Shown here piece by piece: positions 5,291 through 53,580 of a stretch of 64,000 nt of DNA. The notes beneath the pieces are model-generated. The model was given only the letters and a program-made list of their open reading frames with translations, was not told the DNA's origin and did no database searches. Position 1 is the first letter of the stretch; each line of letters starts with the position of its first letter. This DNA is from Candidatus Deferrimicrobium sp. (lineage in GTDB: Bacteria > Desulfobacterota > Deferrimicrobia > Deferrimicrobiales > Deferrimicrobiaceae). The translations under genes and the position numbers were made by a program. The DNA is taken from positions 2,762-66,761 of the forward strand of contig NZ_DASWKA010000043.1 of assembly GCF_036396855.1 (NCBI RefSeq), written 5' to 3'.

Positions 5291-6203
5291 AGCGGATCCT
5301 CGGGTCGAGACGGGCGCACAGAATGTCCGTCGCCAGGTTCACCGCCACGGTGGACAGGGCGATGACGAGGACACACCCCTGGACGAGGGGGTAGTCCCTC
5401 GCATCGATCGCCTGGATCAGCAGGCGGCCGATCCCGGGCCACGAGAAGATCGTTTCGGTGATGACGCTCCCGGCGAGGACCGCACCGAACGACAGCCCCA
5501 GCACCGTGACGACGGGGACGAGGGCGTTGCGCAGCGCGTGGCGGACGACGGCGGACCGGAACGGAAGGCCCCTCGCGATCGCGGCCGTCACGTACTCCTT
5601 CCGGAGTTCCTCCAGCAGCGTCGCGCGGATCATCCGCGTCAGCAGCGCCGCCATCCCCGTCCCGAGCGTGATCGCGGGCAGCACCAGCGGACGGCCCGCG
5701 CCGTACCCCGACACGGGGAGAAGCCCAAGCTGCACGGAGAAGAGGAGCACGAGCAACGGACCGAGGAGGAAGTTCGGGATGGACAGGGAGAGCATCGCCG
5801 CGAAGCCCGACAGGTAGTCCGCGGCCTTCCCGCGCCGCATCGCCGCCAGCACCCCGAGCGGCAGGGCGACGAAGACCGCCACGGTGATGGACGTCGCGGC
5901 GAGAAGGACGGTGGCGGGAATCCGGCGGGCGATCTCGCCGAGGACCGGCTCCCGGCTGCGGAACGACACCCCGAGGTCTCCGCGCGGGATCCCCGCGAGG
6001 AACGAGGCGTACTGCGAAAGGATCGGCCGGTCGAGATGGAGCTCCCGGCGCAGTTCCTCCTTCTGCGCGGGGACGGCGCTTTCCCCCAGCATGATCTCGA
6101 CGGGATCCCCCGGAAGCAGGTGGATCAGCAGGAAGACGACGGTCACCACCCCGAATACCACGGGGAGGGTTCGCAGGAGGCGGCCGAGGAGGTATCTCCT
6201 CAC
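5283..6203 (-). CDS. peptide/nickel ABC transporter permease (DppB/OppB-like)
   Basis: ORF 5283..6605 trimmed to the GTG at 6203 (VRRYLLGRLLRTLPVVFGVVTVVFLLIHLLPGDPV, the classic DppB N-terminus). The GTGA overlaps the binding-protein stop. Confidence 0.85.
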   Translation of the reverse strand: MRRYLLGRLLRTLPVVFGVVTVVFLLIHLLPGDPVEIMLGESAVPAQKEELRRELHLDRPILSQYASFLAGIPRGDLGVSFRSREPVLGEIARRIPATVLLAATSITVAVFVALPLGVLAAMRRGKAADYLSGFAAMLSLSIPNFLLGPLLVLLFSVQLGLLPVSGYGAGRPLVLPAITLGTGMAALLTRMIRATLLEELRKEYVTAAIARGLPFRSAVVRHALRNALVPVVTVLGLSFGAVLAGSVITETIFSWPGIGRLLIQAIDARDYPLVQGCVLVIALSTVAVNLATDILCARLDPRIRYE

Positions 6204-8284
6204 CGCGGTCCTCCTGTCGAAGGAGCCACCGGATCCGGGACGATCCGCATCGCGCGTACGGGCGCGTAGCTTTCGTCCGGGGTGAGCCGGAAACCCGTCA
6301 GCCTGCGGTCCCGGACCAGCAGGTTCCGGCCCGCCCACATCGGGAACACCGGCAGGTCGCGCGCGAGGATACGCTGCACCCGCCGGTACATCGCCCGGCG
6401 TTTTTCCCTGGACGGCTCGAGCCTCGCAGACTCCGTCAGGCGATCCACCTCGACGTCGGAGTACCCCCCGCGGTTCGCGCCGTCGGGGGGACCGCTCCGT
6501 GAATGGAAGGCGTGGTGGAAGATGTCGGGGTCCGAGATCCCGACCCAGGTGAGACTGTAAATCTGGAAATTTCCCTTCTTGATGTCGGAGAAGAAGGTTC
6601 CCCACTCAAGGGATTGGATTTCAACGGCAATTCCTACCTGGCGGAGTTGCTCCTGGATCACGGTGGCGACGCGCCTGCGGACCTCGTTCTGCGACGTCTT
6701 GTACGTCAACCGGAGGCGGGGGAGAGGGCCGTCGCCGTCGGGGTCGGGGAACCCGGCGTCGTCGAGGAGCCGCCCTGCCCGCGCCGGATCGTACGGCGCC
6801 GCGGGAAGATCCGGATCGTGCGCCCATGACCCGGGGGGGAGGATCGAGGAGACGAGGTCGGCGCGCCCTTTCCAGATCGTCCGGACGATCGTCTCCCGGT
6901 CGATCGCGAGGGCGATCGCGCGCCGCACCCTTGCGTCGGACAGCGCCCGATCCCGGAGATGGAAGCCGAGATACGTGACGTTCCCCCCCGGGCCTTCCTC
7001 GACGACGAGCCGTCCGGACAGCGAAGCCGCCGGGAGCAGGTCGGGGTCGACCCCGTTGAGGGTGAAGTTCACGCTCCCCATCTTCAGCTCGAGGAAGCGC
7101 ACGTTGCTGTCGGGGACGAACTTGACCGTCACCGACCGGATCGGTGGCGAACCGCCGTAATACCCGTCGAATGCCGACAGGACCGCCTCGCCGTCGGGGG
7201 AGAGGTCGTCGATCCTGTAGGGGCCCGCTCCCACGGGCGGCGCGTAGCCGCGCGCCGGACTTTCGGCGGGAACGATCCCGCGCACCATCGTGGAGAGGAA
7301 CGGTGCGAACGGCTCGGAGAGGCGGAATACGACGGTCCGCGCGTCGGGGGTCCCGATCGCGGCCACGTGCCGATACAGCCCCCGGTGAGGGGACCGGTTC
7401 GCGGCGTCGAGGATCCACGCGAAGGTGTACCGCACGTCGGCGGAGGTGAGCGGGCGCCCGTCGTGGAACCGCAATCCCGGCCGAAGGTGGAATCTATACG
7501 TCAGGGGATCGGGCGATTCCCACCGTTGCGCGAGATCGGGGAGGGGTTCGCCGGCGGCGTCGCGGCTGACGAGGGAGGCGTGCGTCATCTGGAGGATCTG
7601 CTCGCCGTAGGCGTCGGTCGCCACCCGCGGGTCGACGTTCACGGGCGCCCCCGGCAGCGCGATCACCATCCGCCCCTCTTCGATCGGCAGCTTCTGCGCG
7701 CAACCCAACCCCGCAAGCAGTCCGATCGGGAGGAGAAACCAGGGGAGAAGGCGGTGCCGGACGATTTCCTCCAACGCCGCTTCCTCGATCCGGATCCGCT
7801 GCCGAAGGACGGCGAGGTTGGCGAGGGAGAAGAGGACGAGGGTCACGGGCGCGCGCATCAGGAGCGGGAGCAGCAGGAACTCCAGCACGATGACGAGGTA
7901 GTTCGGGTGGCGGAGGGACCGGTACGGGCCGGCCCGCACGAGGCGCGTGCCCGGGACGACCACGACCCGCGTGTTCCAGTACATCCCGAGCGAAGCGATC
8001 GCCCAGTACCGCAATGCGGTCACCACGGCCAGGGCGGCCAGGCATGTCCACGTTCGGATGTCCTCCGGGACTCGCCACGGGTAGGACTCCAGCGAAAGGG
8101 AGGCGAGGAAGAGAACGTGGAGGGACACCATCACTTTGTACGTATCGGGACGGACCTCCCTGCCGCCTCGCGAGAGCAGCCGCAGCCGGTTTCTCCGGCA
8201 CAGCCAAAGCTCCGACAGGCGCTGTGCGGCAACGACCGGCGCCACCCAAGCGAGGGAGATCATCCTTCCAGGACTCCTTTCCAT
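6200..8284 (-). CDS. single ORF: ICMT/PEMT-family membrane methyltransferase-like N-domain (aa ~1-170) fused in frame to a family-5 ABC substrate-binding lipoprotein (aa ~171-694)
   Basis: The N-part has multi-TM segments, RHPNYL and RIRIEEAAL motifs. No stop follows. A TTG at 7774 then gives LEEIVRHRLLPWFLLPIGLLAGLGC (signal peptide plus lipobox-like LGC), followed by a peptide-binding-protein fold. An alternative model is an SBP alone at 6200..7774. Confidence 0.7.
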   Translation of the reverse strand: MERSPGRMISLAWVAPVVAAQRLSELWLCRRNRLRLLSRGGREVRPDTYKVMVSLHVLFLASLSLESYPWRVPEDIRTWTCLAALAVVTALRYWAIASLGMYWNTRVVVVPGTRLVRAGPYRSLRHPNYLVIVLEFLLLPLLMRAPVTLVLFSLANLAVLRQRIRIEEAALEEIVRHRLLPWFLLPIGLLAGLGCAQKLPIEEGRMVIALPGAPVNVDPRVATDAYGEQILQMTHASLVSRDAAGEPLPDLAQRWESPDPLTYRFHLRPGLRFHDGRPLTSADVRYTFAWILDAANRSPHRGLYRHVAAIGTPDARTVVFRLSEPFAPFLSTMVRGIVPAESPARGYAPPVGAGPYRIDDLSPDGEAVLSAFDGYYGGSPPIRSVTVKFVPDSNVRFLELKMGSVNFTLNGVDPDLLPAASLSGRLVVEEGPGGNVTYLGFHLRDRALSDARVRRAIALAIDRETIVRTIWKGRADLVSSILPPGSWAHDPDLPAAPYDPARAGRLLDDAGFPDPDGDGPLPRLRLTYKTSQNEVRRRVATVIQEQLRQVGIAVEIQSLEWGTFFSDIKKGNFQIYSLTWVGISDPDIFHHAFHSRSGPPDGANRGGYSDVEVDRLTESARLEPSREKRRAMYRRVQRILARDLPVFPMWAGRNLLVRDRRLTGFRLTPDESYAPVRAMRIVPDPVAPSTGGPR

Positions 8285-8328
8285 GATTTCCGCACAATCA
8301 ATATATAATGGAGAAGGGGTGCCCCGGG
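8285..8328. promoter_or_regulatory. divergent intergenic region with an AT-rich patch (CAATCAATATATAAT)
   Basis: This is the only AT-rich stretch between the divergent 8284(-) and 8308/8329(+) genes. No consensus boxes could be assigned with confidence. Confidence 0.25.
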
Positions 8329-8949
8329 ATGAACATACGCGCAGTGCTGCTGCTGGCGACGCTGGCGGCGGTTTTTTCTCCTTCCTCCGCCGGGGAAGCG
8401 AAGGCGGATCCCCCCGCGTCGGCGACGATCCGGGGAGGATGCGACGTCGCTTTCCTCATCAGGTCCACCTTGCACGACATTCCCGGCTCCGCCCGTTGCC
8501 TGCCCTTTGCAGCGGTCCTTGCCCGCGACGCCGCCGGCAGGCAGGTCGTCCCGTCCGTGGAAGTGGAAGTGCCGGTGGAGGGGATGGACACGCGGAACCG
8601 GTCCCGCGACGGCCAGATGCGGGAGATGTTCCGGTCGGAGCGGTTTCCGCGAATCCACGCGGCGGCGCATAATGTGGATGTCGAACGGCTCCGGGCGGAA
8701 ACCGGAAACGGCCGCAAGGGGATCGCCTCCATCGACCTGCTCCTTCGGATTCGGGACAGGGAACGAAAGGTGCGCGCCACGGCGAGCAACCTGAAGGAGG
8801 CCGGCGAACAGGTCACCTTCGACATCGAGTTCCCCGTGTCGCTCGGGGAATTCGATCTGAAAGCCCCCTCCGTTCTCGGATTCATCCGTGTCGGGGACAA
8901 GGTCACCGTCAAGGCAAACTTCACCCTGACCGTTTCCCGATCTCCTTGA
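8308..8949 (+). CDS. secreted YceI-like (polyisoprenoid/lipid-binding) domain protein
   Basis: Signal peptide MNIRAVLLLATLAAVFSPSSAGEA (alternative start 8329, preceded by GAAGGGG). The YceI-like pattern is VEVPVEGMDTRNRSRDGQMREMFRSERFPRI, followed by beta-rich repeats. Confidence 0.6.
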   Translation: MEKGCPGMNIRAVLLLATLAAVFSPSSAGEAKADPPASATIRGGCDVAFLIRSTLHDIPGSARCLPFAAVLARDAAGRQVVPSVEVEVPVEGMDTRNRSRDGQMREMFRSERFPRIHAAAHNVDVERLRAETGNGRKGIASIDLLLRIRDRERKVRATASNLKEAGEQVTFDIEFPVSLGEFDLKAPSVLGFIRVGDKVTVKANFTLTVSRSP

Positions 8950-8982
8950 GGCGCATCCTATTGTAAGGGACGGAGGCACCCG

Positions 8983-10137
8983 ATGACCGCCTGGATCCAC
9001 CGGATCGACACGCTGCTTCCCGATTTCTCCTTCGCCCAGGAGGCGGCGATGGTGAAGATGCAGGAATGGGCTCGCGACGACCGGGAGCGGCGCCTGGTAC
9101 GCGCCGTTTACCGTCACTCGGGGATCGAGCGCCGCCACTCCGTCCTTCGAAACTACGATGGGGAAGGGGAGGGCGCATTCTTCCGGCCGGACGCCGGTGG
9201 AGCGCTTCGAGGCCCCGGGACCGCCGCCCGCAACGACATCTTTTCGACCGAGTCCCGCGCGATGTCGGTGGCGTTGGCCCGGAAGGTGATCGGAAACTGT
9301 CCCGGCGTCGCTCCCCCCGACGTGACGCACGTCGTGACCGTGTCGTGCACCGGGTTCTACAACCCCGGGCCCGACTACTACATCGTCCGCGAACTGGGGA
9401 TGTCCGACGCCACGCAGCGGTACCACCTCGGCTTCATGGGGTGCTACGCCGCCTTCCCCGCCTTGCGGATGGCCGCCCAGTTCTGCGCGGCGGACCCGTC
9501 CGCCGTGGTCCTCGTGATGTGCCTCGAGCTGTGCAGCCTCCACATCCAGTTGAACGGATCGGAGGACAACCTGCTCGCGAACTCGCTCTTCGCCGACGGG
9601 GCGGGGGCTGCGATCGTATCCGCCCGGGAGCCGGATCCGGGAACGCCCGCATATCGGCTGGCCGGTTTCCGTTCCGCGCTGGTTTCCGCCGGCGAGCAGG
9701 ACATGACGTGGAGGATCGGCGACCAGGGGTTCGACATCGCCCTGTCGAGCTACGTGCCGAAGCTGATCGGCTCGAACATCCGCGAGCTGGTCGGACCCGC
9801 ACTCGCCGCCGGGGGTCTGTCCACGTCCGACATCGCCACGTGGGCGGTCCACCCCGGGGGGAAGTCGATCATCGACCAGGTGCAGAGGACCCTCGGACTT
9901 TCCGACGACCAGGTGAGCGCCTCCCGCGAAGTGCTGCGCCGGCGCGGAAACATGAGCAGCGCCACCATCCTCTTCGTCCTCGAGGAGATCCTCAAGCGTC
10001 CCGCAGGGAAAGAGAGGGAGAGGGTCTGCGCCGTCGCGTTCGGGCCGGGGTTGACCGTAGAGACGGCGACCATGGAAGCGATCTTCGCTCCGGATGCCGT
10101 CGGGGCAGCCGCGGCGTTCCCCCTCCCGGCAGGATGA
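8983..10137 (+). CDS. type III polyketide synthase (chalcone/stilbene synthase family)
   Basis: Catalytic Cys in VTVSCTGFYNPGPDY, His in WAVHPGGKSII, Asn in RRGNMSSATILFVL, and C-terminal FGPGLTVE. Confidence 0.92.
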   Translation: MTAWIHRIDTLLPDFSFAQEAAMVKMQEWARDDRERRLVRAVYRHSGIERRHSVLRNYDGEGEGAFFRPDAGGALRGPGTAARNDIFSTESRAMSVALARKVIGNCPGVAPPDVTHVVTVSCTGFYNPGPDYYIVRELGMSDATQRYHLGFMGCYAAFPALRMAAQFCAADPSAVVLVMCLELCSLHIQLNGSEDNLLANSLFADGAGAAIVSAREPDPGTPAYRLAGFRSALVSAGEQDMTWRIGDQGFDIALSSYVPKLIGSNIRELVGPALAAGGLSTSDIATWAVHPGGKSIIDQVQRTLGLSDDQVSASREVLRRRGNMSSATILFVLEEILKRPAGKERERVCAVAFGPGLTVETATMEAIFAPDAVGAAAAFPLPAG

Positions 10138-11387
10138 GGCTCTCCGTCGCCACGAATTTCGACCCCGCGCTGGTCGATGCGCTCCGGGGGTTCCCGGTCG
10201 TCGAACTGTTCGGCAAGTTGCGGGAGGACGCAGTGGGCGGCGGGCGCGCTCCCTACCAGCTCGCGCCGGTGTCCCGGAAGGGGCTTGCCGCGCACGTGCG
10301 GTTTGCCCGGGCGGCGGGCATCTCCTTCAACTATCTCCTCAACGCGTCCTGCCTCGGCAACCGGGAGATCACGCGCGCCGGGCAGGCGGAGATCGAGAAC
10401 CTCTGCGGCTGGCTTTGCGGCATCGGCGTGGAGACGGTCACCGTTTCCTCCCCGTTTCTCCTTCGAATCGTCAAGACGCGCTACCCGGAGCTCAAGGTCC
10501 GGATCTCCGTTTTCGCGGGCGTGGATCGCGTGCGCAAGGCGCGGATGTGGGAGGAGATGGGCGCGGACGGGATCGTCCTCGACAGCCTCCTCGTGAACCG
10601 GGAATTTTTCACGCTGGCCCGGATCCGCGAATCGGTGAAATGCGACCTCGAGCTGCTGGTGAACAACAACTGCCTCTACTCCTGCGCCCTCTCCCCGGCC
10701 CACATGAACGCCCTGGCCCATGCCGGCCAGAAATGGCACGGAAACCGCGGCTTCTTCATCGACGGCTGCTTCCTGCGGTGCACGGAGATGAAGCTGCGGG
10801 ATCCCGTGAATTACATCCGCTCGGAGTGGATCCGCCCGGAAGACATCTCCGCGTACGAGGAAATGGGGTACGACCTGTTCAAGGTGACGGAGCGGGACCT
10901 TCCCACGCCGGTGATGGTCAACCGGGTCCGGGCCTACGCGGCGCGCCGGTACGACGGCAATCTCCTCGACCTGGTCCAGCCGTACGCCTTGCAGGGGGTG
11001 AGCGGGAGCGAACGGTACTACCGGAAGGGGATCGGGTGGCAGCGAAGGTTCCTCCTTCGACCGGGGCTGGTGAACCCCGCCCGGATGCTCCCGCTGAAGC
11101 GGCTGGCGGACATGCGGCACATGACCCGTCCGGTGACGGGTGCGCCTCCGGTGGTCGTCGACAACCGGGCGCTCGACGGCTTCATCGAAAGGTTCCGGGA
11201 GAAAGGGTGCCGCGACGTGGAGTGCGAGGCGTGCCGCTGGTGCCACGATTTCGCGGCGAAGGCGGTCCGGATCGATCCGGAGGAGAGCCGACGGGCGCTG
11301 GCGGCGTATGACGAGGTGTTCCGCTCCCTCGACGGCGGGGCGATGTGGCGGTACCTCCCGGGCGGGAACGGGGTCGGCGACCCGTGA
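10134..11387 (+). CDS. U32-family (peptidase U32 / UbiU-UbiV-TrhP superfamily) protein
   Basis: ATG 10134 overlaps the PKS stop (ATGA); ORF 9066..11387 is trimmed accordingly. N-terminus is MRLSVATNFDPALVDAL..ISFNYLLNASCLGN..VETVTVSSPFLLRIVKTRYPELKV. A Cys block, NNNCLYSC...GCFLRC, could bind an Fe-S cluster. The family call is from memory of U32 architecture and needs an HMM. Confidence 0.6.
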   Translation: MRLSVATNFDPALVDALRGFPVVELFGKLREDAVGGGRAPYQLAPVSRKGLAAHVRFARAAGISFNYLLNASCLGNREITRAGQAEIENLCGWLCGIGVETVTVSSPFLLRIVKTRYPELKVRISVFAGVDRVRKARMWEEMGADGIVLDSLLVNREFFTLARIRESVKCDLELLVNNNCLYSCALSPAHMNALAHAGQKWHGNRGFFIDGCFLRCTEMKLRDPVNYIRSEWIRPEDISAYEEMGYDLFKVTERDLPTPVMVNRVRAYAARRYDGNLLDLVQPYALQGVSGSERYYRKGIGWQRRFLLRPGLVNPARMLPLKRLADMRHMTRPVTGAPPVVVDNRALDGFIERFREKGCRDVECEACRWCHDFAAKAVRIDPEESRRALAAYDEVFRSLDGGAMWRYLPGGNGVGDP

Positions 11388-12118
11388 CCGTGCGATTCCG
11401 CCTCAAGGCGCGGGAGTGGCTCGACGTCCCGGAGCGGAAGCGGGTCTACAACGAACGCCACTTCGCCGTGGCGGCGTCGCGGTACGACCTGGCGACGCGC
11501 ATGATGTCGCTCGGGCGGGACGCGGCGTGGAAGCGGGCGCTCATCGCGGCCTTGCCGGACTTCCCGGCCCCCGTTTGCGTCGATCTTGCGTGCGGCACCG
11601 GCGACGTGGCCTTCCTTCTCGCGGGACGCTACCCCGAAGGGGACGTCACAGGGCTGGATCTTTCCGCGCCGATGCTGGCGATCGCGCGGGAGCGGAACCG
11701 GTTCACGAACGTCCGGTTCGAGCGGGGCGACCTGTGCTGCCTCCCGTTTCCCGACGGTTCCGCCGATGTCGTTACCGGGAGCTACGCCCTTCGCAACGCT
11801 CCCGACCTTTGGAAAGCCGTCGCCGAGGTCCGCCGGGTGCTTTCCCCCGGCGGCGTGGCGGCGTTCCTCGACTTTTCGAATCCGGAGCGTTCCCTCCTCC
11901 GGTATTCGCAATACCTTCTTCTGCGGAGCTGGTGCGGCCTCTGGGGATTCCTCCTTCACGGGACGCCGGAAATCCACGGATATGTCGCGGAGAGCCTGCG
12001 GGAGTTCCCGGACCGGAACCGGTTGCGGGAAATCTTCCGGGAGAACCGGTTCGAGGTGTCGGCGGAACGCCGTTATTATCTCGGGATCACGGGATTGGTT
12101 CTCCTGCGTCCGGCATGA
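11345..12118 (+). CDS. UbiE/MenG-family class I SAM-dependent C-methyltransferase
   Basis: FAVAASRYDLATRMMSLGRDAAWKR..VDLACGTGDVAF..GLDLSAPML..LPFPDGSADVVTGSYALRNAPD..RVLSPGG..FLDFS matches the UbiE pattern closely. An alternative GTG start at 11384 overlaps the upstream stop (GTGA). Confidence 0.85.
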   Translation: MAVPPGRERGRRPVTVRFRLKAREWLDVPERKRVYNERHFAVAASRYDLATRMMSLGRDAAWKRALIAALPDFPAPVCVDLACGTGDVAFLLAGRYPEGDVTGLDLSAPMLAIARERNRFTNVRFERGDLCCLPFPDGSADVVTGSYALRNAPDLWKAVAEVRRVLSPGGVAAFLDFSNPERSLLRYSQYLLLRSWCGLWGFLLHGTPEIHGYVAESLREFPDRNRLREIFRENRFEVSAERRYYLGITGLVLLRPA

Positions 12119-12155
12119 CGTTTCCGTTGACTCGAAAACGTGGTAACTTTGAAAA

Positions 12156-13070
12156 ATGGCGATTGAAATGGAGAATTCCGGAAGGCCCGCCGCAGCGGGC
12201 AAGTCTACCGGTTCCTACCGTCACGGTCTCGCCCGCCCCGCCTCCTACAAGATCGGCTATTCCCTCGGGAAGTGGCTTCCGAGAGCGGTTCTGTTCGCCC
12301 TCGCGGACCTCCTCGCCGACGCCACGCACTGGACGAATCCGGAACCGGCCCGGAATCTCCAGGCGAACTTGCGATCGGCCTTCCCACGATGGTCCGAGCG
12401 GGAAGTCGAAGAATTCTCAAAGAGGATTTTCCGGAACTTCGCCCGCAATCTGGTCGATTACGGACGATTCCCTACGATCACGGACGAAGCGCTGGATCGG
12501 TTGCTTCCCTCCGTCCAGAACCTCCACTTCATGGAAGAGTCCTTCGCAAAGGGAAAGGGGGTCATCCTCGTGACCGGCCACATCGGTAACTGGGAACTGG
12601 GCGCCCTGTTCTTCGGCCGGCACGGCTTCAAGATCAACGTCGTAACGATTCCCGAAGGGAGCGAGCGGATCGATTCGATCCGCGGAGCATATCGCACGCG
12701 CCAGAACATCCGCACGATTGTCGTCGACGGTTCCCCGTTCTCCTCCCTCGAGATCGTGGCGGCGCTCCGCAGGGGGGAGATCGTCGCCATGCTCGTGGAC
12801 CGGTGGGAAGGCGCCGACGGCGTACCGGCGAAATTCTTCGGCGCGGATCGTCGTTTCCCCCGAGGCCCGTTCGTTCTTGGACGGGCGATGGGCGCCCCCA
12901 TTCTCCCCGCGTTCATCGTCCGGGAGGGAAGCGTCTACCGGGGAGTCGTCGATCCCCCTTTTTTCGTGGAGGAGCCGGAGGATGAGCCCGGGGCGCGACG
13001 GGTAAGCGAGTCTCTCGAACGGATGGTTCGGGCCTGCCCGGACCAATGGTATGATTTCGCACCTCGTTGA
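12156..13070 (+). CDS. LpxL/HtrB-type lipid acyltransferase (lysophospholipid acyltransferase superfamily)
   Basis: Catalytic-box motif VTGHIGNWELG, plus the downstream VAMLVDR and FPRGP motifs typical of lauroyl/myristoyl acyltransferases. Confidence 0.8.
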   Translation: MAIEMENSGRPAAAGKSTGSYRHGLARPASYKIGYSLGKWLPRAVLFALADLLADATHWTNPEPARNLQANLRSAFPRWSEREVEEFSKRIFRNFARNLVDYGRFPTITDEALDRLLPSVQNLHFMEESFAKGKGVILVTGHIGNWELGALFFGRHGFKINVVTIPEGSERIDSIRGAYRTRQNIRTIVVDGSPFSSLEIVAALRRGEIVAMLVDRWEGADGVPAKFFGADRRFPRGPFVLGRAMGAPILPAFIVREGSVYRGVVDPPFFVEEPEDEPGARRVSESLERMVRACPDQWYDFAPR

Positions 13071-13101
13071 GGATCATGGATTCGAGCAAGGAGACGAACG
13101 G

Positions 13102-14679
13102 ATGGGGCCATTGAAGCGATCCTCGCCGGGGAATGCGGCTGGCGCGGAAGGGGAAGCGCGGTACTCTCTCGGAGGGGAGAAGGTCCTCCCCGTGCGGACG
13201 ATCCTCCCGAAGAAAACGCGTTCCCTGTGCCCGGAGTGTCTTCAAACGGTCCCCGCCGGTCTGTACGAAGAGAAGGGGCGGGTGATGATGCGGAAGCGTT
13301 GCCCGGATCACGGCACGTTCACCGACGTCATCTTCTCGGACGTGGAGATGTACCTCCGCCTGGGGCAGTGGTATTTCGGGGACGGAGAGGGATTCGCGAA
13401 CCCCATCGACGGCATGGGGAAGGAGTGCCCGAACCGTTGCGGCATCTGCGGGTCGCATTCGACGCACACCTCCCTCGCCAATATCGACCTCACCGCGCGC
13501 TGCAACCTGTCCTGTTCGGTCTGCTTCGCGGACGCCAACCGGAATTCGTTCGAACCGTCGTTCGAACAGGTGGTGGAGATGCTCCGCCGTTTTCGCGCCC
13601 AGCGTCCTGCGCCGGCATTCGCCGTCCAGTTCACGGGGGGCGAGCCTACGCTGCACCCGCGATTTCTCGATATCGTGGCCGAAGCGCGGAAAATGGGGTT
13701 TTCCCACCTCCAGGCGGCCACCAACGGCATTCGGTTCGCCGACCCTGAGTTCGCGCGCAGAGCGCGGGATGCCGGGCTCCATTACCTGTACCTGCAGATG
13801 GACGGGACGACCGACGACGTCTTCCTGAAGATCCGCGGGAAGGCGTTGCTGGACACCAAACTCCGGGTGATCGATTCCGCGCGGAAGGCCGGTCTCCGCG
13901 TCATCTTCGTCCCCACCATCGTGAAAGGGGTGAACGACCACCAGATCGGGGACCTCTGCCGCCTGGCCTTCGACCATCTCGACGTGCTGTCGGGGATTTC
14001 CTTTCAGCCGATGACGTTCACGGGGAGGTACCCCGAATCGGAGCGCGAGAAACTTCGATTCACCCTTTCGGACCTTTCCCGGGAGTTCAGCCGCCAGACC
14101 GGGCTCACCCACCCCCTGGAGGATTGGTTCCCCCTGAACGCCGCGGTTCCCCTGGTCCGATACGCGGGGGCCGTAACGGGGAACGTGGCGGTGAACCACG
14201 CGTGCCATCCCCATTGCGGGTTGATGACCCTGTTTTTCGTCGGCCGGAACCGCGAGGCCGTCCCGATCACGAGGTTCCTCGACCTCCGGGGACTTCTCGG
14301 AGAGGTGGAACGGCTGACGGGGAGCGCGAGGGCGAGCCGGGTCAAGAGCTTGTCGAAGATCCGCGCCCTCCAGGCTTTTTACCGGTTTTTCCGGGAGGAC
14401 CGGGCTCCGGCCGGGTTGACGTTTCTCCGCTTTCTCAAGACCCTCGACGGGTTCGCCGAAAAGAAATACAGTTGGGACGGAAAGCACGAAGGGCACACAT
14501 TTAAGACCTTCTATGTCCTCGGGATGCATTTCATGGATGCCTACAATTACGACCTCGAGCGCGTGTCGCGCTGCGGCGTTCATTATTCGGCCCGCGACGG
14601 AAGAATCTACCCGTTTTGCACCTACAACTCGGGACCCGTCCACCGTCATCGTATAGAGAATTCGATTGCGTCTTCTTGA
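13102..14679 (+). CDS. radical SAM protein with an N-terminal Cys-rich (zinc-ribbon/rubredoxin-like) region; resembles the tetraether-lipid-synthase (Tes/GDGT-MAS, MJ0619-type) family
   Basis: CNLSCSVC radical SAM triad preceded by CPECL..CPDHG and CPNRCGICGSH. AAGGAG sits 8 nt upstream of ATG 13102 (longer ORF from 13051). The radical SAM call is secure. The Tes-like subfamily call is from memory and tentative. Confidence 0.8.
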   Translation: MGPLKRSSPGNAAGAEGEARYSLGGEKVLPVRTILPKKTRSLCPECLQTVPAGLYEEKGRVMMRKRCPDHGTFTDVIFSDVEMYLRLGQWYFGDGEGFANPIDGMGKECPNRCGICGSHSTHTSLANIDLTARCNLSCSVCFADANRNSFEPSFEQVVEMLRRFRAQRPAPAFAVQFTGGEPTLHPRFLDIVAEARKMGFSHLQAATNGIRFADPEFARRARDAGLHYLYLQMDGTTDDVFLKIRGKALLDTKLRVIDSARKAGLRVIFVPTIVKGVNDHQIGDLCRLAFDHLDVLSGISFQPMTFTGRYPESEREKLRFTLSDLSREFSRQTGLTHPLEDWFPLNAAVPLVRYAGAVTGNVAVNHACHPHCGLMTLFFVGRNREAVPITRFLDLRGLLGEVERLTGSARASRVKSLSKIRALQAFYRFFREDRAPAGLTFLRFLKTLDGFAEKKYSWDGKHEGHTFKTFYVLGMHFMDAYNYDLERVSRCGVHYSARDGRIYPFCTYNSGPVHRHRIENSIASS

Positions 14680-15451
14680 GTTCGCGCGATCCCCATGGAT
14701 CTCCCGCGGGACCCGGGACGCTACACTAAGGTGGATCGTTTCCGCCACGCTCCTTGCGCTGCTCCTTTCTCCTCGGCCGAACTTCGCGGAGGAAGCCGTC
14801 CCGGACGGCAAGAGGATCACGGGAGCGGAGAGGGACCGCTGGTTCGAGGAGATCCGCGATCGCCAGAAGGGGGTCACCGGCTGGAGCGCCGCGGTGGTGC
14901 AGCGGAAGCGGGACCCGCTCCTGAAGCACGAGGCGGTGTCCAGGGGGAAGTTGTCGTTCCGGAAGCCGGCCTCGCTTCGATGGGAAGTGGAGAGCCCCGA
15001 AAGAAGGATCGTGGTGATGGATGGCCGGACGGTGACCGCCTATTATCCGAAGAGAAAGGAGGCCGAGCGGAGGGACATGCAGGACGATTTCGCGGCCCGC
15101 GCCGCGCTGGGTTTTATCGAATCGGGGATCTCCGCTTCCCTCCCCGAACTGGAACGACGATTCCAGGTCGACCTTTTCCGGTCAGAGAACCAGGTGGTAC
15201 TGCGGTTGACCCCGCGCTCGAAGATGCTGTCCCGCGTCATCGCATCGATCCGGGTCCACCAGGATCCTGTGGAGGGAGGGCCGCGTCGAATCGTGGTCGA
15301 GGGAGCCCGCGGGGATCGGACCGAGACGACGTTCTCCGGGGTGACACTCAACCCCGAATTTCCCCCGGACACCTTTTCCTTGCGGCTGGGACCCGAGGTC
15401 AGAGTCACGGAAACGGGGGGACCGGAACGGGACCGGATCGATTCGCCATGA
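14666..15451 (+). CDS. LolA-like outer-membrane lipoprotein carrier family protein
   Basis: TTG start and a signal-like segment, IVSATLLALLLSPRPNFAEE. LolA-like pattern: GKLSFRKPASLRWEVESPERRIVVMDGRTVTAYYP. Confidence 0.65.
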   Translation: MRLLEFARSPWISRGTRDATLRWIVSATLLALLLSPRPNFAEEAVPDGKRITGAERDRWFEEIRDRQKGVTGWSAAVVQRKRDPLLKHEAVSRGKLSFRKPASLRWEVESPERRIVVMDGRTVTAYYPKRKEAERRDMQDDFAARAALGFIESGISASLPELERRFQVDLFRSENQVVLRLTPRSKMLSRVIASIRVHQDPVEGGPRRIVVEGARGDRTETTFSGVTLNPEFPPDTFSLRLGPEVRVTETGGPERDRIDSP

Positions 15452-15537
15452 CGAGGTTTCTCCGGCTGCGTGCGAACGAAACCTCGCGGGCGATTCCGAT
15501 CGCCTGAAGGGTTGATGGACCGCGGCGGCCCCGGGGA

Positions 15538-16713
15538 ATGACCATGTCGAGCGCAATGCCGGCCGTCCTGCTCCTCGACGGCTTGTGGAACAAGACGGTG
15601 GCGGCGGTCCGCTCCCTCGGGAAGCGCGGTTACCGTGTCTCGGTGGGGGAGAGGACCCGGTTCGCGCCCGCCCTGTTTTCGAGATACTGCTCGCGTCGTT
15701 TTCTTCACCCGTCGCCGGCAACCTCCCCGGAGGCATTTCTCGATGCGCTCGAAAAGGAGGTGCGCGTCGGCGGACACGACGTCGTTCTCGCGATGGAATT
15801 CGGCACGCAGGTCCTGCTCGCCCGGAATCGGCACCTCCTCGGGGGGAGGACGCGTTTCCCCTTCGCATCCGCGGACCTCGCGATCCGGGTCCAGGACAAG
15901 GGAGAGCTCGCGACGTTCGCATCGGCCCACGGCGTCGAGTGTCCCGCCACGTTCCGTCCGGAAGAGCCGGGGGACGTTCACGCGATGGCTTCGCTTCTCC
16001 CATACCCCCTCCTCATCAAGCCCAGGCTTTCCTCCGGAGGGAGAGGGATCGTGCGGGTGGAAACCGCCTCGCAGCTCCGGAAAGAGTATCCGAACGTGCA
16101 TGCCGTCCATCCGTCTCCGATCCTTCAGGAGTGCCTGCCCCCGGGAGGGGCCGCGCTGGGGGTGGCCGTTCTGATGAATTTTTCTTCCGAACCACGTGCA
16201 ACGTTCGCCTACCGGCGCCTGCGGGAATACCCCGTCGGCGGGGGCCCCAGCACGCTCCGGGAGAGCGTGCTGGACGAGCCGCTTTGCAGGACGACGGAAC
16301 GGCTCCTCTCGGCGCTCCAGTGGACCGGCGTCGCGATGGCGGAGTTCAAGGTCGACCCGAGGGACGGCAGGCCGAAGCTCCTCGAGGTGAATCCCCGATT
16401 CTGGGGATCGCTGCACCATGCGATCCTGTCGGGAGTCGATTTCCCGCACCTGTTGTGCCGGATGGCGATCGACGGGGATGTTCCTCCCCTGCGGGAGTAC
16501 CGGGTAGGCGTTCGGAGTCGATCCCTGATCCACGGGGACCTGATGCATTTCGCGGGAAACCCGCGGCGGTTCCACCTCGACCCCGGCTTCCTCGATTTTT
16601 CGATCCCGGATGACCTGCTGTCGACGTCGGATCCGTGGCCCGTGGTGGGGCGGGTGGCAACCCTGATCCCCGCGTGCTACGACAGGGACCTGCGGAAAAC
16701 GATGCTGGGCTAG
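15538..16713 (+). CDS. ATP-grasp domain ligase
   Basis: Pre-ATP-grasp N-domain (LLLDGLWNKTVAAVRSLGKRGYRV). Central LLIKPRLSSGGRGI and LQECLP motifs. C-terminal MAEFKVDPRDGRPKLLEVNPRFWGS, the ATP-grasp Mg site. Confidence 0.8.
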   Translation: MTMSSAMPAVLLLDGLWNKTVAAVRSLGKRGYRVSVGERTRFAPALFSRYCSRRFLHPSPATSPEAFLDALEKEVRVGGHDVVLAMEFGTQVLLARNRHLLGGRTRFPFASADLAIRVQDKGELATFASAHGVECPATFRPEEPGDVHAMASLLPYPLLIKPRLSSGGRGIVRVETASQLRKEYPNVHAVHPSPILQECLPPGGAALGVAVLMNFSSEPRATFAYRRLREYPVGGGPSTLRESVLDEPLCRTTERLLSALQWTGVAMAEFKVDPRDGRPKLLEVNPRFWGSLHHAILSGVDFPHLLCRMAIDGDVPPLREYRVGVRSRSLIHGDLMHFAGNPRRFHLDPGFLDFSIPDDLLSTSDPWPVVGRVATLIPACYDRDLRKTMLG

Positions 16714-16784
16714 GGGAATCGCTTCGCAAGCCGCGTCCGCGGGCACGGGATACGAAATCAGGAAACGGAGATGAGCGAAGGGCG

Positions 16785-17615
16785 ATGACGTGCCGGAACG
16801 CGCTGACCGTGGACCTGGAAGACTGGTATCACATCTGCGGGACGGGCCAGGCCGGGGACGTCTCCACGTGGGACGCGTATGAAAGTCGCGTGGTCCGCAG
16901 CACGGCGAGGATCCTTTCCCTTCTCCGGGAACATGGGGTCCGCGCCACGTTTTTCGTCCTCGGCTACGTCGCCGAACGCGAACCGGGATTGATCGCCGGA
17001 ATCGCGAAGGAGGGGCACGAGATCGCCACCCACGGACACTACCACCGAAGGGTGTTCGAAATGTCCGAGGAGGAGTTCGCGGAGGACGTCGATCGCTCCA
17101 TCGACGCGATATCGTCCGCCGGCGGGGGCCGCGTGATCGGGTACCGCGCGCCGGAGTGGTCCATCCGGCCCCACACGATGTGGGCGCTCCGGATCCTGCG
17201 GCGGAAAGGGATCCGGTACGACTCCAGCATGGTCCCCTTGACGCGAATGGGGGACCGCTCCTTCCCGACCGCGCCCTGCCGGATCCCGACGGAGGACGGG
17301 GAGATCCTCGAGTTCCCCTTGACCACCGTCCGCTGCTTCGGGGAACATCTCCCCTTCACGGGTGGGCTGCCGTTGCGCCTCATGCCGTATTTCTACGTTC
17401 TTTCGAGGATCCGCCGGATGAACGCGGTGGGAGATGCGGCGATGGTGTACGTCCATCCGTGGGAATTCGACGCCGGGCAGCCGAGGATCGAACTTCCATG
17501 GAGCCGCAGGTTCATGCATTATTTCAACCTGCGCTCGACCCCAGGGAAGCTTTCGGGGCTGCTCGGCAACCTGCGATTCGCGCCCCTCCGCGAAGTGCTC
17601 GAGATCGGCCAGTAA
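16785..17615 (+). CDS. polysaccharide deacetylase family protein (NodB-type, DUF3473-like C-terminus)
   Basis: ORF 16635..17615 trimmed to ATG 16785. ALTVDLEDWYH, ATFFVLGYVAEREP and HEIATHGHYH motifs. Confidence 0.85.
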   Translation: MTCRNALTVDLEDWYHICGTGQAGDVSTWDAYESRVVRSTARILSLLREHGVRATFFVLGYVAEREPGLIAGIAKEGHEIATHGHYHRRVFEMSEEEFAEDVDRSIDAISSAGGGRVIGYRAPEWSIRPHTMWALRILRRKGIRYDSSMVPLTRMGDRSFPTAPCRIPTEDGEILEFPLTTVRCFGEHLPFTGGLPLRLMPYFYVLSRIRRMNAVGDAAMVYVHPWEFDAGQPRIELPWSRRFMHYFNLRSTPGKLSGLLGNLRFAPLREVLEIGQ

Positions 17616-20749: not shown

Positions 20750-22045
20750 TCAAAGTCTGGCGTTGGCGTGGAACGCCTTGACCAGTCCGGCATACCGCTC
20801 GTAGAACCGTTTTTCGCCCAGGAAGGTCGGGACAACCGCGTTCGTGAGCGTGTAGTAATCGAGATCGTGGAGGACGATCCGGTCCGACCAGGCGGCGTGA
20901 AGGGGGTGGCCTGGAAGGGGAGTGAGTACGGCGAGCAGGGGAAGGTCGATCTTCCGTTCTGTCACATACCGTTCGAGGGCGTCGAATCGCTCCTCGTCGT
21001 AGTCGGGGGACACGATGAAATCGCCCACGATGGAGACCCCCATCTCGTGGAGGATCGCGATGGCTTCGTCGTTCACGGCCACGCTTCCGGATTTGTTCAG
21101 GGAGGCGAGCGCGTCGTCCGTGATCTCCTCGAACCCGATGATCACGGAACGGAGCCCCGCCTCTTTCCAGCGGCGCAGCAGATCGGGGTGGAGGACCACG
21201 GTGTCGGATCGGACGTCGACCACGAAGTTTTTCCGGATGCCGGCTGAGAGGATCCCCTCCGCGAGGAGCGAAGCATGGCGCGGGTCGCCGAAGGTGTTCG
21301 CATCCACGAGACGGATTACCGGGATGTCGCCCAGCGCCCGGATGTCCGCGATCACCGTTTCGACGGTGTGGTTCAGGTACCGGCCGCCGGTGAGGGAGGA
21401 GATGCAGCAGAACGAGCATCGGTACGGACATCCGAACGCCGATGCCACGAAGCCGATCCGGAAGCCGAGCGAGGAGAGCGTGTAGCTGTCCCGATACCGG
21501 GCGACGAGATCGTAGCGGGGCGGACCGGTTTCCACAAGGTCGGCGGGGCCGAATTCCCTGGGGACGAAGGCGAGTCTGCCGCCGGAGTTCGTCCGGGCGA
21601 CGCCGGGCAGGTTGCCGGCATCCCGGTCCGCCTCGATCGCCGCCGCCAGTTCGGCGAAACTGGCCTTGCCGAGGCCCACGACCACGTAATCGATGCAGGA
21701 CCGGTTGAAGAAGTCCGGATCGCAACTGGCGTGGATTCCCCCCGTCACCACGGTGGCGCCGAGGTTTTCCTTGACCTCCTCCGCGAGACGCACCACCGTG
21801 TTCGCTTCGCAGGTGACCGCGGTGAAGCCGACCAGATCCGGCCCGAAGCCCGAGAGGGCGTCGTGGAACCCCCCCGGCTCCGCCTTCAGATCGAGGATCC
21901 GCACCTCGTGATCTTCCAGACCTCCCGCGAGCACTTCCAACGCGAGCGGCTCTCCCCGGAAGATCTGACGGATGGAGTCGATCCCGTAGCGCTCTTCGGG
22001 GATGCTTCGGCCGCAATTCGGCGGGTTGACCAGGAGGATCTTCAT
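20750..22045 (-). CDS. B12-binding domain radical SAM protein
   Basis: N-terminal MKILLVNPP..LEVLAGGLEDHEVRILD (cobalamin-binding Rossmann-like domain). FGCPYRCSFC radical SAM triad. Confidence 0.88.
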   Translation of the reverse strand: MKILLVNPPNCGRSIPEERYGIDSIRQIFRGEPLALEVLAGGLEDHEVRILDLKAEPGGFHDALSGFGPDLVGFTAVTCEANTVVRLAEEVKENLGATVVTGGIHASCDPDFFNRSCIDYVVVGLGKASFAELAAAIEADRDAGNLPGVARTNSGGRLAFVPREFGPADLVETGPPRYDLVARYRDSYTLSSLGFRIGFVASAFGCPYRCSFCCISSLTGGRYLNHTVETVIADIRALGDIPVIRLVDANTFGDPRHASLLAEGILSAGIRKNFVVDVRSDTVVLHPDLLRRWKEAGLRSVIIGFEEITDDALASLNKSGSVAVNDEAIAILHEMGVSIVGDFIVSPDYDEERFDALERYVTERKIDLPLLAVLTPLPGHPLHAAWSDRIVLHDLDYYTLTNAVVPTFLGEKRFYERYAGLVKAFHANARL

Positions 22046-33125: not shown

Positions 33126-34580
33126 TCAGCAGGATTCGTCCATGAGGCGGCGGTTGGTGCGGGTGAATTTGAGGAAATCGCCCATGTTCCGGGCGAACCG
33201 GAGCCAGCTGTCGGGCGATCGCCACAGCATGGCGGCATACCCCATCAGGACCCTGGGCCTCTTGAAGTGGGTACTGTAAAAGTCCCGGTAGAGTTCCTCG
33301 AGTCGCGCCGCGGTCATCCCCTTCGTGACGAACTGGAAGTGCATGCAGTCCATCTTTTCCCAGTCCTCGTCGAAATCGCCCAGCTCGCGGATCGTTTCGT
33401 AGATCGGCGAGCCCGGGAAGGGGGTGAACTTGGTCAGGTTGAAGTCGTCGATCGGGAGCGAAAAGACGTACTCCATGCTTCGCCGGATGCTTTCCTCCGT
33501 CTCGCCGGGCAGCCCCATCATGAGCAGTCCCTTCGTCCGGATCCCGGCCTTTTTTATTGTCCGGATCGTCCCGGCGATGCGGTCCAGGTCCGCATGCTGC
33601 CGGTGCTCCGCCAGCAGTCGCTCGTCGCCCGTCTCGATCCCGAGGCTGACCATCCAGCAACCGGCCGACTTCATGCGGCGCAGCAGCTCCGGGTCGACGT
33701 GCTCCGCCCGGACGGCGCAGTTGAAGGTCATCCCGAGGGGACGGTCGATCATCATCCCCGTGAACGCTTCGACCCTCTTCCGCTGGAAGGTGAACTGGTC
33801 GTCGTAGAAGTTGACGTGCCGGGTGCCGAACCGTTCCTTCAGGTACCGCAGGTGCTCGTAGAGATATTCGGCGGAGTTGAACCGGAAGCTCCGACGGAAG
33901 ACCGAGCGGTCGCAGTAGCTGCAGGAATAGGGACAGCCCCGGCTGGAGATGCAGCTCGTGTTCGGTACTCGCGGATAGTTGAAGATGGGAAGCTTGTACG
34001 AGCCGGGGAACCCGTCGAGCTTCTCGTACGCCGGAAAGGGGAGGGTGTCCAGGTCGATCGCCCGGTCCCGGAAACCGGTGAACCGGGCGGCCCCTTCCGT
34101 GCCTTCGCGGAAGATGATCCCCTTGATGTTCGCAGGATCCTCGCCGCCGGACGCGATCAGTTCCCCCAGCGTCTCTTCCCCCTCCCCGACCACGGCGAAG
34201 TCCATCGCCGGGAAGCGTGGAAAGAGCGCTTCCTTCAGGGCGGAAACGTGGGGGCCTCCGAAGACGGTCCGGATGCCGGGCAACACCGCACGAGCCGCTT
34301 CCGCGATCCGGATTCCGTCGAGAAAGCTCGATGTGGTGCAGCTGACGCCGAGGAAGGCGGGGCGCTCCGCAAGAAGGTGGTCCCGGATCGCGCGGTCGGA
34401 GCCGGGGCGGGCGTAGCTGTCGACGATGGTGGACCGGATGCCCCGCCGTTCGAGGCAGGCCGCGATGCTGGCCAGCCCGAGGGGCGGCATGATGTTGGCG
34501 ATCCGGGAGATATCGCCGGAAGCGGCGTCGGCGCGATAGCCGAGAGGATGGACCAGCAGGACCCGGTCGGGATTCAGCAT
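33126..34580 (-). CDS. B12-binding domain radical SAM protein
   Basis: ORF trimmed to ATG 34580. N-terminal RVLLVHP..MPPLGLASIAACLERRG. SRGCPYSCSYC triad. Confidence 0.9.
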   Translation of the reverse strand: MLNPDRVLLVHPLGYRADAASGDISRIANIMPPLGLASIAACLERRGIRSTIVDSYARPGSDRAIRDHLLAERPAFLGVSCTTSSFLDGIRIAEAARAVLPGIRTVFGGPHVSALKEALFPRFPAMDFAVVGEGEETLGELIASGGEDPANIKGIIFREGTEGAARFTGFRDRAIDLDTLPFPAYEKLDGFPGSYKLPIFNYPRVPNTSCISSRGCPYSCSYCDRSVFRRSFRFNSAEYLYEHLRYLKERFGTRHVNFYDDQFTFQRKRVEAFTGMMIDRPLGMTFNCAVRAEHVDPELLRRMKSAGCWMVSLGIETGDERLLAEHRQHADLDRIAGTIRTIKKAGIRTKGLLMMGLPGETEESIRRSMEYVFSLPIDDFNLTKFTPFPGSPIYETIRELGDFDEDWEKMDCMHFQFVTKGMTAARLEELYRDFYSTHFKRPRVLMGYAAMLWRSPDSWLRFARNMGDFLKFTRTNRRLMDESC

Positions 34581-41121: not shown

Positions 41122-41145
41122 CAGGACTGCCGGAACTGGGGCCCG

Positions 41146-45336: not shown

Positions 45337-45353
45337 AACGCTCCCAGGATGGC

Positions 45354-46082: not shown

Positions 46083-46138
46083 AACGAAAATATTTAATCT
46101 CCATTTGGCATCCTCCCGTCAAGAGAAAAGGTTTCGGA
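46083..46138. promoter_or_regulatory. divergent promoter region between fabG(-) and the radical SAM gene(+)
   Basis: 56-bp gap containing the only AT-rich run nearby (AAAATATTTAATCTCCATTT). Boxes were not confidently assignable. Confidence 0.3.
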
Positions 46139-48177: not shown

Positions 48178-48202
48178 CTCCCTGTGATGCGGGTTCACTA
48201 AG

Positions 48203-53573: not shown

Positions 53574-53580
53574 TGGGCGC

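Follow-up and report, generated by a model that had tools for sequence, protein, structure and literature searches.

A type III polyketide synthase cassette with a U32-family Fe–S protein in Candidatus Deferrimicrobium: a candidate O2-independent route to alkylquinols

Here, we describe a gene cassette in a 64,000-nucleotide stretch of DNA from Candidatus Deferrimicrobium sp. (contig NZ_DASWKA010000043.1, positions 2,762 to 66,761 of the forward strand), which was analyzed at its full length and is referred to below as the window. Positions 7760-12118 of the window hold five compactly arranged genes: an ICMT-type methyltransferase on the minus strand, then, on the plus strand, a YceI-like protein, a type III polyketide synthase (PKS), a U32-like Fe–S protein and a UbiE-type methyltransferase. 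Together they probably form a self-contained biosynthetic cassette that is horizontally mobile and makes a phenolic lipid with a modified ring. Its most likely product, with every chemical step being one that we infer, is an alkyl-methyl-(methoxy)-1,4-benzoquinol or -quinone (a ‘polyketide quinone’, PkQ) formed from an alkylresorcinol without the use of O2.

Operons that combine a PKS, a methyltransferase and an oxidoreductase make alkylquinones or PkQ (PMC9927152, PMC10896814). The U32 proteins UbiU/V, TrhP and RlhA mediate O2-independent, prephenate-dependent hydroxylations (PMC6747719, PMC10990095, PMC11574389), and U32 oxidases are known in the literature from ubiquinone and RNA hydroxylation only (PMC11574389, PMC10990095). 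An initial annotation, made from the letters of the window, had proposed the anaerobic hydroxylation and methylation of a PKS-derived phenolic lipid here. We infer the same, now with support from the displacement of a flavin monooxygenase (FMO), from genetic linkage, from gene fusions and from eight conserved cysteines in the U32-like protein. The annotation had also ventured that no such route was described, and our literature search turned up no publication connecting U32 proteins to type III PKSs, alkylresorcinols or polyketide quinones.

Linkage of the cassette genes and displacement of the flavin monooxygenase

The link between the PKS, U32 and UbiE-type genes is not a matter of chance and recurs in dozens of genomes. 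In a scan centred on the U32-like gene (one genome per species, 58 loci), orthologues of at least 65% identity were accompanied by a PKS in 39 of 43 informative loci and by a UbiE-type methyltransferase in 41 of 45, with YceI in 31 and ICMT in 16; among more distant U32 homologues, a PKS or methyltransferase was found in 0 of 12. In 31 of 46 U32-centred loci, and also in most PKS-centred ones, YceI is the gene directly upstream of the PKS. The loci come from MBNT15/Deferrimicrobiaceae, Desulfuromonadales/Geobacter-like bacteria, Planctomycetota and a small number of other hosts, and the gene order is reshuffled between Desulfobacterota and Planctomycetota: Desulfuromonadaceae have YceI-PKS-MMPL-unknown-U32-methyltransferase, and Planctomycetaceae have SDR-methyltransferase-PKS, then MMPL-YceI on the other strand, then U32-methyltransferase. 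Many Desulfuromonadales and some Deferrimicrobiaceae carry an MMPL transporter and a secreted protein of ∼200 residues between the PKS and U32 genes. Three distinct and independent in-frame U32–UbiE fusion proteins (clusters P0063, P0068 and P0094) add to the link. The co-occurrence on which the initial annotation had staked its idea is strong and crosses phyla, and the idea stands. Across a wider U32-centred set (62 loci, 915 kb) no second U32 gene and no SCP2 (UbiT) gene was found; the cassette has a single U32 gene, and no prenyltransferase, UbiD/X, UbiT or other Ubi/Men/Mqn gene was present in any cassette examined. Two sets of homologues were set aside as functional leads: a Geothermobacter locus, in which the U32 orthologue is solitary and its context uninformative, and Bdellovibrionota homologues (54% identity), which stand beside spermidine-synthase-like membrane proteins without a PKS or methyltransferase.

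The best evidence that the U32-like protein would do the job of a ring hydroxylase comes from a comparison of the genes that follow the PKS. Metagenome contigs were searched with the PKS alignment, a search that is unbiased regarding U32, and yielded 80 loci, 36 of them with at least 2.5 kb downstream of the PKS. U32 was present in 6 of these 36 and a UbiH/UbiI-like FAD_binding_3 monooxygenase in 23; 7 had neither and none had both. The flavin genes encode FAD_binding_3 aromatic-ring hydroxylases (Pfam E 1e-44 to 1e-57), and their clusters match the U32 versions gene for gene: the orders YceI-PKS-FMO-UbiE methyltransferase (L117) and YceI-PKS-MMPL-FMO-UbiE methyltransferase (L133) correspond to YceI-PKS-MMPL-unknown-(methyltransferase)-U32-(methyltransferase) in L097 and L065. 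The FMO-partnered methyltransferases of L117 and L133 are 45-52% identical to that of the window (52% for L117). In two complete-genome metagenome-assembled genomes (MAGs), a FAD_binding_3 gene and a two-component system are followed by YceI-PKS-MMPL-unknown-UbiE methyltransferase-PEMT (the L148/L149 type); both methyltransferase types therefore belong to the pathway. A protein of ∼200 residues that belongs to no Pfam family and has a signal-like segment at its N-terminus lies directly 3′ of the operon MMPL gene (L028 9336-9974, L065 6256-6867, L148 12468-13073 and equivalents) and is conserved in both the U32-type and the flavin-type clusters. These flavin sister clusters (L117, L133, L110 and L148/L149; YceI-PKS-(MMPL)-FAD_binding_3-UbiE methyltransferase-(PEMT)) thus share with the U32 clusters the frame, YceI, the PKS (45-58% identity), MMPL, the ∼200-residue protein and the UbiE-type methyltransferase (45-52%), and differ in having a UbiH/UbiI-like flavin monooxygenase and no U32; the literature search found no characterization of them.

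A neighbour-joining tree of 111 PKSs places the U32-linked enzymes in two clades, a large one from Desulfobacterota and a separate one from planctomycetes, and the FMO-linked PKS of L110 nests within the U32-linked clade; this implies at least two switches between U32 and FMO. In the reverse direction, an FMO-like gene occurs in only one of the 62 U32-centred loci, a divergent Binataceae locus. This locus (L045 7706-11251, a Binataceae MAG) is the only one in which a U32 homologue (56% identity) has both a PKS-like gene (28%) and a FAD_binding_3-like gene beside it, an exception to the exclusivity. Of the parts of an Srs/Pkq operon, the PKS and ICMT are present, the flavin hydroxylase is found in neither the window nor 61 of the 62 related loci, and U32 takes its place. 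The initial annotation had seen no oxygenase, in agreement with a tblastn search of the 64-kb window with six UbiH/UbiI-type monooxygenases, which gave no match at E ≤ 1e-3. We read the overall pattern as a non-orthologous displacement.

The cassette and its proteins

Every gene that the initial annotation had placed in the cassette was found at its position by open reading frame (ORF) listing and by Pfam and NCBIfam profile scans of the window proteins. The features are as follows.

7760..8284, minus strand: ICMT/PEMT-type membrane methyltransferase domain, SrsB/BpsB-like, proposed phenol O-methyltransferase (Pfam ICMT E 4e-23, PEMT E 1e-7)
8264..8328, no strand: short, A+T-rich divergent intergenic region between ICMT and YceI, presumed promoter region (from reading the sequence)
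8308..8949, plus strand: YceI-like lipid/polyisoprenoid-binding protein with N-terminal signal peptide, proposed periplasmic carrier of the lipid product (Pfam YceI)
8983..10137, plus strand: type III PKS of the long-chain bacterial kind, proposed alkylresorcinol synthase (Chal_sti_synt_N/C)
10134..11387, plus strand: U32-family Fe–S protein, proposed O2-independent ring hydroxylase (Peptidase_U32)
10671..10781, plus strand: variant U32-type four-cysteine motif C180-X3-C184-X27-C212-X3-C216, predicted [4Fe–4S] site (alignment conservation)
11208..11243, plus strand: additional C-terminal motif C359-X4-C364-X2-C367-X2-C370, predicted second metal/Fe–S site (alignment conservation)
11384..12118, plus strand: UbiE/MenG-type methyltransferase dependent on S-adenosylmethionine (SAM), proposed quinol ring C-methyltransferase (Ubie_methyltran)

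The last three genes are tightly joined: the PKS ends and U32 begins within an ATGA overlap at 10134-10137, and the U32 stop overlaps the GTG start of the methyltransferase as GTGA at 11384-11387. This GTG start (11384) is sound because the natural U32–methyltransferase fusion proteins join exactly there. At the other end, the true starts are probably MISLAW at 8263 for ICMT and MNIRAV at 8329 for YceI, on either side of the intergenic region 8264..8328 (…caatcaatatataatgg…), in which a sigma-70 scan found no site. A promoter and terminator scan inside the cassette gave nothing exceeding the shuffled expectation, and a promoter-like site lies at 12149-12176, past the methyltransferase stop and ahead of the next operon.

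Both chalcone/stilbene synthase domains are recognized in the PKS (Chal_sti_synt_N E 8e-20, Chal_sti_synt_C E 9e-27), and its motifs GFMGC154, HPGG (H290) and GNMSS (N323) supply the Cys-His-Asn triad of a type III PKS. Among solved structures it is closest to 7cb3 and M. tuberculosis PKS18 (E ∼1e-45), and C154, H290, N323 and W243 are invariant in 12 diverse orthologues. A tryptophan at the position of ArsB-281 favours aldol cyclization in alkylresorcinol synthases (PMC9927152); W243 may correspond to ArsB W281, to judge by its spacing from the triad. The YceI domain scores 45.2 bits (E 1.7e-11; cut-off 23.7) behind a signal-peptide-like N-terminus. The UbiE-type methyltransferase matches Ubie_methyltran (E 1.4e-35), contains the SAM motif VDLACGTGD and passes NCBIfam TIGR01934 at the borderline (158.4 against a cut-off of 158.35 bits), but it lies below the UbiE equivalog NF001244 (160 against 216 bits) and far below the cut-offs of other equivalogs.

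The U32-like protein reaches 40.4 bits with Peptidase_U32 (PF01136; gathering cut-off 22.4), a match limited to residues 87-183 and profile positions 4-97 of 233. Its only sequence match in the PDB is Mk0906 (PDB 5d88), a U32 protein. In an AlphaFold2 model (pTM 0.74) the top Foldseek match was likewise 5d88 (E 1.5e-9, TM(target) 0.68), the next matches being generic TIM barrels; the protein is thus predicted to have the U32 TIM-barrel, (β/α)8 fold. A profile comparison (hhalign) gave TrhP a 76% probability over residues 31-178 and UbiU 8.7%. No specific NCBIfam model applies to the protein, which is not a UbiU/UbiV/TrhP equivalog, the sole match being TrhP at 19.2 bits against a cut-off of 534. 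The comparison with UbiU, UbiV and TrhP that the initial annotation had called for is therefore divided: the U32 fold and the alignment of the barrel to TrhP stand, and the equivalog score does not. No signal peptide was present in the protein.

The canonical motif of U32 oxidases is CX6CX15CX3/4C (PMC6747719, PMC11574389). The CX3CX27CX3C motif found here occupies the canonical site, directly past the barrel strand ‘ELLVNNN’, where TrhP has CX6C, and in the same order; with hhalign against single E. coli U32 proteins the cysteine region was not aligned, and MAFFT aligned the first cysteine only. The C-terminal CX4CX2CX2C motif is absent from UbiU, UbiV, TrhP and RlhA. All eight cysteines are kept in 51 of 51 homologues, including the 54%-identical Bdellovibrionota and 38%-identical Listeria proteins. 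The presence of the Fe–S cysteines had been set beforehand as a point on which the idea could fall, and it survives, with four cysteines at the canonical site in a variant spacing. The protein probably represents a distinct U32 subfamily with two metal/Fe–S sites per chain, to judge by this conservation, and the subfamily is large (475 representatives at 50% clustering, E ≤ 1e-30).

Chorismate mutase, the enzyme that makes prephenate, is encoded directly downstream of the 38%-identical subfamily members of Paenibacillus and Listeria (CM_2 E 2e-14; tblastn E 1e-11); this neighbour was not present at loci of the PKS-linked U32 clade. As UbiU/V-dependent hydroxylation draws its oxygen from prephenate, and the same has been proposed for all U32 oxidases (PMC10990095), the chorismate mutase neighbour supports a prephenate-using subfamily, indirectly so for the PKS-linked clade. 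At the two loci (L057 10001-15949, Paenibacillus rhizophilus; L058 10001-15800, Listeria immobilis), U32 stands at the head of a distinct conserved cluster, ahead of chorismate mutase, a pair of ATP-grasp ligases and components I and II of aminodeoxychorismate/anthranilate synthase; this cluster may constitute an uncharacterized chorismate-derived natural-product pathway with a U32 hydroxylation.

Cassette boundaries, mobility and neighbouring genes

The right edge of the cassette is just beyond the methyltransferase stop and the left edge is the junction of ICMT with a lipoprotein gene. The initial annotation had noted a divergent ICMT-like flanking domain; it is present and divergent, but is not free-standing, being fused in frame to a family-5 solute-binding lipoprotein. 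In this chimeric minus-strand ORF (6200-8284) the N-terminal 175 residues are the ICMT domain (nt 7760-8284) and the remainder is the SBP5 lipoprotein; the junction follows ‘LEEIV’ at nt 7760, from where the frame continues into a family-5 ABC solute-binding protein by way of its lipoprotein signal peptide (…LLAGLGC…). Free-standing ICMT orthologues of ∼175 residues lie divergent from YceI in 16 related loci, and in six relatives the protein terminates 8 residues past the equivalent point. The last ∼8 codons and the stop have thus been replaced in the window by the in-frame SBP5 fusion, and the chimera arose at the cassette boundary. An internal GTG could still serve as the start of the SBP5 binding protein.

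The position of the cassette varies among relatives. The same five genes stand in an unrelated neighbourhood in an 87%-identical relative, where an aldo-keto reductase and RNase PH flank them. In four close relatives (L003, L004, L008 and L046) it lies between homologues of window 40184-47662 and 47854-56990, adjoining a methyltransferase and an MMPL gene; the cassette has been relocated by ∼36 kb in this genome, or the reverse move took place in the relatives. Still other contexts are seen in L007 and L063. From these varied positions the cassette is taken to be a mobile unit. Composition varies as well: in metagenome contigs L074, L076 and L070 the PKS is 92% identical, the UbiE-type methyltransferase directly follows it and U32 is precisely missing, with a PKS–methyltransferase gap of 72 bp in L074 and L076. 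Such YceI-PKS-methyltransferase loci may be natural deletion variants or split clusters.

Downstream genes of the window were considered as parts of the module and rejected. The LPLAT, Tes-like radical SAM and LolA genes (12156-15451) are conserved beside the cassette in 0 of 58 loci, and the contexts of relatives differ. They overlap on the plus strand, with a lipid A-type acyltransferase encoded at 12156-13070, a radical SAM protein at 13051-14679 and a LolA-like protein at 14666-15451, and their operon, which extends from 12156 to 17615, continues with genes for an ATP-grasp protein and a polysaccharide deacetylase of the XrtA type. At 498.9 bits, above the cut-off of 450, the radical SAM protein scores as the NCBIfam equivalog of Tes, the archaeal tetraether lipid synthase, and the occurrence of a bacterial homologue of Tes among lipid-handling genes may be relevant to the synthesis of membrane-spanning lipids similar to branched glycerol dialkyl glycerol tetraethers (brGDGT-like). 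From ∼17800 to 52000 the window contains a large lipid/polyene-like biosynthetic cluster that resembles aryl-polyene or ladderane-type clusters, with three clear B12-binding radical SAM proteins (20750-22045, 33126-35654 and 46139-47659); an ORF at 35923-37422 gives a weak, below-cut-off B12-binding match. This cluster also has four ketoacyl synthases, an acyl carrier protein, an ApeI-like dehydratase, a thioesterase, acyltransferases, an amine-oxidase-type flavoprotein, FabG, a GT2+DUF2062 protein, an ABC-2 exporter, a BtrH-like protein, methyltransferases and an MMPL exporter. The window MMPL gene (49055-51592) is a doubtful candidate for the exporter of the cassette: its product is ∼21-27% identical to operon-embedded MMPLs and more likely belongs to the large lipid cluster. 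A homologue of this gene adjoins the cassette in four close relatives.

Proposed pathway, alternatives and significance

In the pathway that we propose, the type III PKS would, judging by its family, condense a fatty acyl starter with malonyl-CoA and close the chain into a ring, giving a 5-alkylresorcinol. The ICMT-type enzyme would O-methylate one hydroxyl, as SrsB/BpsB-type enzymes do with one phenol hydroxyl. The U32 protein would then hydroxylate the ring para to the free hydroxyl without O2, probably with prephenate as the oxygen donor as for UbiU/UbiV, to give a 2-alkyl-6-methoxy-1,4-benzoquinol. The UbiE-type enzyme would C-methylate this benzoquinol to an alkyl analogue of demethoxyubiquinol; the product of the proposed hydroxylation is the alkyl analogue of the native benzoquinol substrate of UbiE. 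Finally, the secreted YceI protein, with MMPL and the ∼200-residue secreted protein where present, would move the lipid beyond the cytoplasmic membrane. The order of steps and the exact product may differ in lineages without an ICMT gene.

Such a pathway is probably of the Srs/Pkq kind with a different, O2-independent hydroxylase drawn from a new U32 subfamily. With Streptomyces griseus srsABC and Mycobacterium/Streptomyces pkqABC it shares the type III PKS, the membrane ICMT-type methyltransferase, a ring-hydroxylating step and an identical product skeleton, 2-alkyl-3-methyl-6-methoxy-benzoquinone, which is predicted here from the genes; PkQ is used under O2 limitation (PMC9927152). The differences lie in the hydroxylase (an O2-dependent flavoprotein in Srs/Pkq, a U32 Fe–S protein here), in the ring C-methyl group, which comes from methylmalonyl-CoA there (PMC9927152) and, as proposed, from the UbiE-type enzyme here, in the added YceI carrier and, elsewhere, MMPL exporter, and in the hosts, which are Actinobacteria there and Desulfobacterota, MBNT15 and Planctomycetota here. 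The UbiU-UbiV-UbiT pathway likewise ties a U32 Fe–S protein to quinol ring chemistry and a UbiE-family C-methyltransferase, and the step proposed here is the UbiH-type C1 hydroxylation in which UbiU/V replace UbiH, with prephenate the likely donor (PMC6747719, PMC10990095). The cassette, however, has one U32 gene in place of a heterodimer and no SCP2/UbiT, its U32 protein has the CX3CX27CX3C and extra CX4CX2CX2C motifs and no NCBIfam score as UbiU, UbiV or TrhP, and the substrate would be a polyketide alkylphenol rather than a polyprenylphenol. Closest in fold and profile are TrhP/RlhA and Mk0906 (PDB 5d88), single-polypeptide proteins with a TIM-barrel U32 domain; TrhP and RlhA differ in having RNA substrates, other C-terminal extra domains and the canonical cysteine motif, and Mk0906 is itself uncharacterized. 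In the hid-type operons of Planctomycetota and cyanobacteria (methyltransferase–FAD oxidoreductase–type III PKS), the PKSs are experimentally established alkylresorcinol synthases and some clusters encode a YceI-like protein along with a lipoprotein (PMC10896814). In planctomycetes, loci L030, L035 and L066 have methyltransferase-PKS adjoining U32-UbiE methyltransferase; the FAD oxidoreductase is missing where U32 is present, and the planctomycete type III PKS survey reports only methyltransferase–FAD oxidoreductase–PKS operons and no U32 (PMC10896814).

Several points weigh against O2-free hydroxylation by the U32 protein. No U32 protein has been demonstrated to hydroxylate in vitro, and no role has been assigned to their Fe–S clusters (PMC10990095, PMC11574389). 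Homology to the characterized U32 oxidases is confined to the N-terminal barrel (hhalign 76% for TrhP, ∼9% for UbiU), the cysteine spacing differs from CX6CX15CX3/4C, and the model has pLDDT < 50 for residues 181-211. The PKS product could be a resorcinol, a pyrone or another compound. Close relatives have YceI-PKS-methyltransferase with no U32 between (L070, L074, L076, L088 and L099), and the orthologous U32 stands alone in L023, L043 and L054/L059; the genes can therefore be unlinked or dispensable. The exclusivity of U32 and FMO is partly confounded by phylogeny, its counts not being phylogenetically independent. The ICMT of the window, chimeric with a transporter gene, might be impaired. 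For the host lineage, MBNT15/Deferrimicrobia, a facultatively anaerobic metabolism with oxidases is predicted (PMC9386147), and a strict need for an O2-free route therefore does not follow.

Some of these points would also fit a product that is an exported methylated alkylresorcinol or alkylpyrone envelope lipid, with U32 serving, for instance, some other Fe–S-dependent reaction of the polyketide (redox, decarboxylation or dehydration), or else maturation or regulation. The YceI signal peptide and the in-operon MMPL exporters of many genomes point away from a redox carrier of the cytoplasmic membrane, and the U32-less variants, the non-canonical cysteine motif, the extra C-terminal motif that U32 oxidases lack and the want of a known in vitro U32 hydroxylase activity can be read in the same way. 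We nevertheless consider this possible rather than probable: U32 and FAD_binding_3 hydroxylases exclude one another in the same frame (0 of 36 with both), the fusion to a UbiE-type enzyme, of a family that acts on quinols, implies a quinol intermediate and hence a hydroxylation, and subfamily members adjoin chorismate mutase.

The U32 and UbiE-type proteins might instead serve the synthesis of an isoprenoid (menaquinone- or ubiquinone-like) quinone and merely adjoin an unrelated PKS operon, given that the methyltransferase just reaches the TIGR01934 UbiE/MenG cut-off, that the characterized U32 quinone enzymes act on prenylated rings and that U32 orthologues are solitary in some genomes. This is very unlikely, as the PKS is present in 39 of 43 informative loci across phyla and despite the reshuffled order, PKS and U32 bracket MMPL and unknown genes within one operon, the cassettes lack prenyltransferase, UbiD/X, UbiT and other Ubi/Men/Mqn genes, orthologues of the same methyltransferase partner the PKS in FMO-type clusters, and the methyltransferase falls short of the UbiE equivalog cut-off (160 versus 216 bits). 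Least probable of all, and hardly credible, is that the U32-like gene encodes a genuine collagenase-type peptidase or unrelated housekeeping protein whose adjacency is meaningless. Database annotations do name it ‘U32 family peptidase / collagenase-like PrtC’, yet it is translationally coupled on both sides, has conserved synteny, occurs in fusion proteins, retains eight invariant cysteines and is without a signal peptide. The O2-independent alkylquinol pathway is accordingly the explanation that we favour, as a probable one.

A wider proposal, which we regard as speculative and on balance doubtful, is that metal-reducing anaerobes and facultative anaerobes (MBNT15/Deferrimicrobia and Desulfuromonadales) and some Planctomycetota make new polyketide quinones without O2 by means of a single-subunit, two-cluster U32 hydroxylase, and that MMPL/YceI export them to the periplasm or outer membrane, where they would function as redox lipids or electron shuttles, extracellular electron transfer being one example, and not only as protectants.

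To our knowledge, most U32 subfamilies are uncharacterized. If the proposed pathway is true, the use of a polyketide alkylphenol by a U32 protein would bring O2-independent hydroxylation into specialized lipid and quinone metabolism, and the paired U32 and flavin versions of one cluster constitute a natural experiment. In vitro assays of U32 proteins are lacking because UbiU/V act on polyprenylphenols, which are very hydrophobic; short-chain alkylresorcinols can be bought, and a simple alkylresorcinol substrate would provide the first tractable in vitro system for U32/prephenate chemistry. Alkylquinones, so far tied to O2-dependent flavoproteins in Actinobacteria, could then arise in anoxic sediments, and an unrecognized redox-active lipid would be added to the iron-reducing lineages that are abundant in wetlands and sediments.

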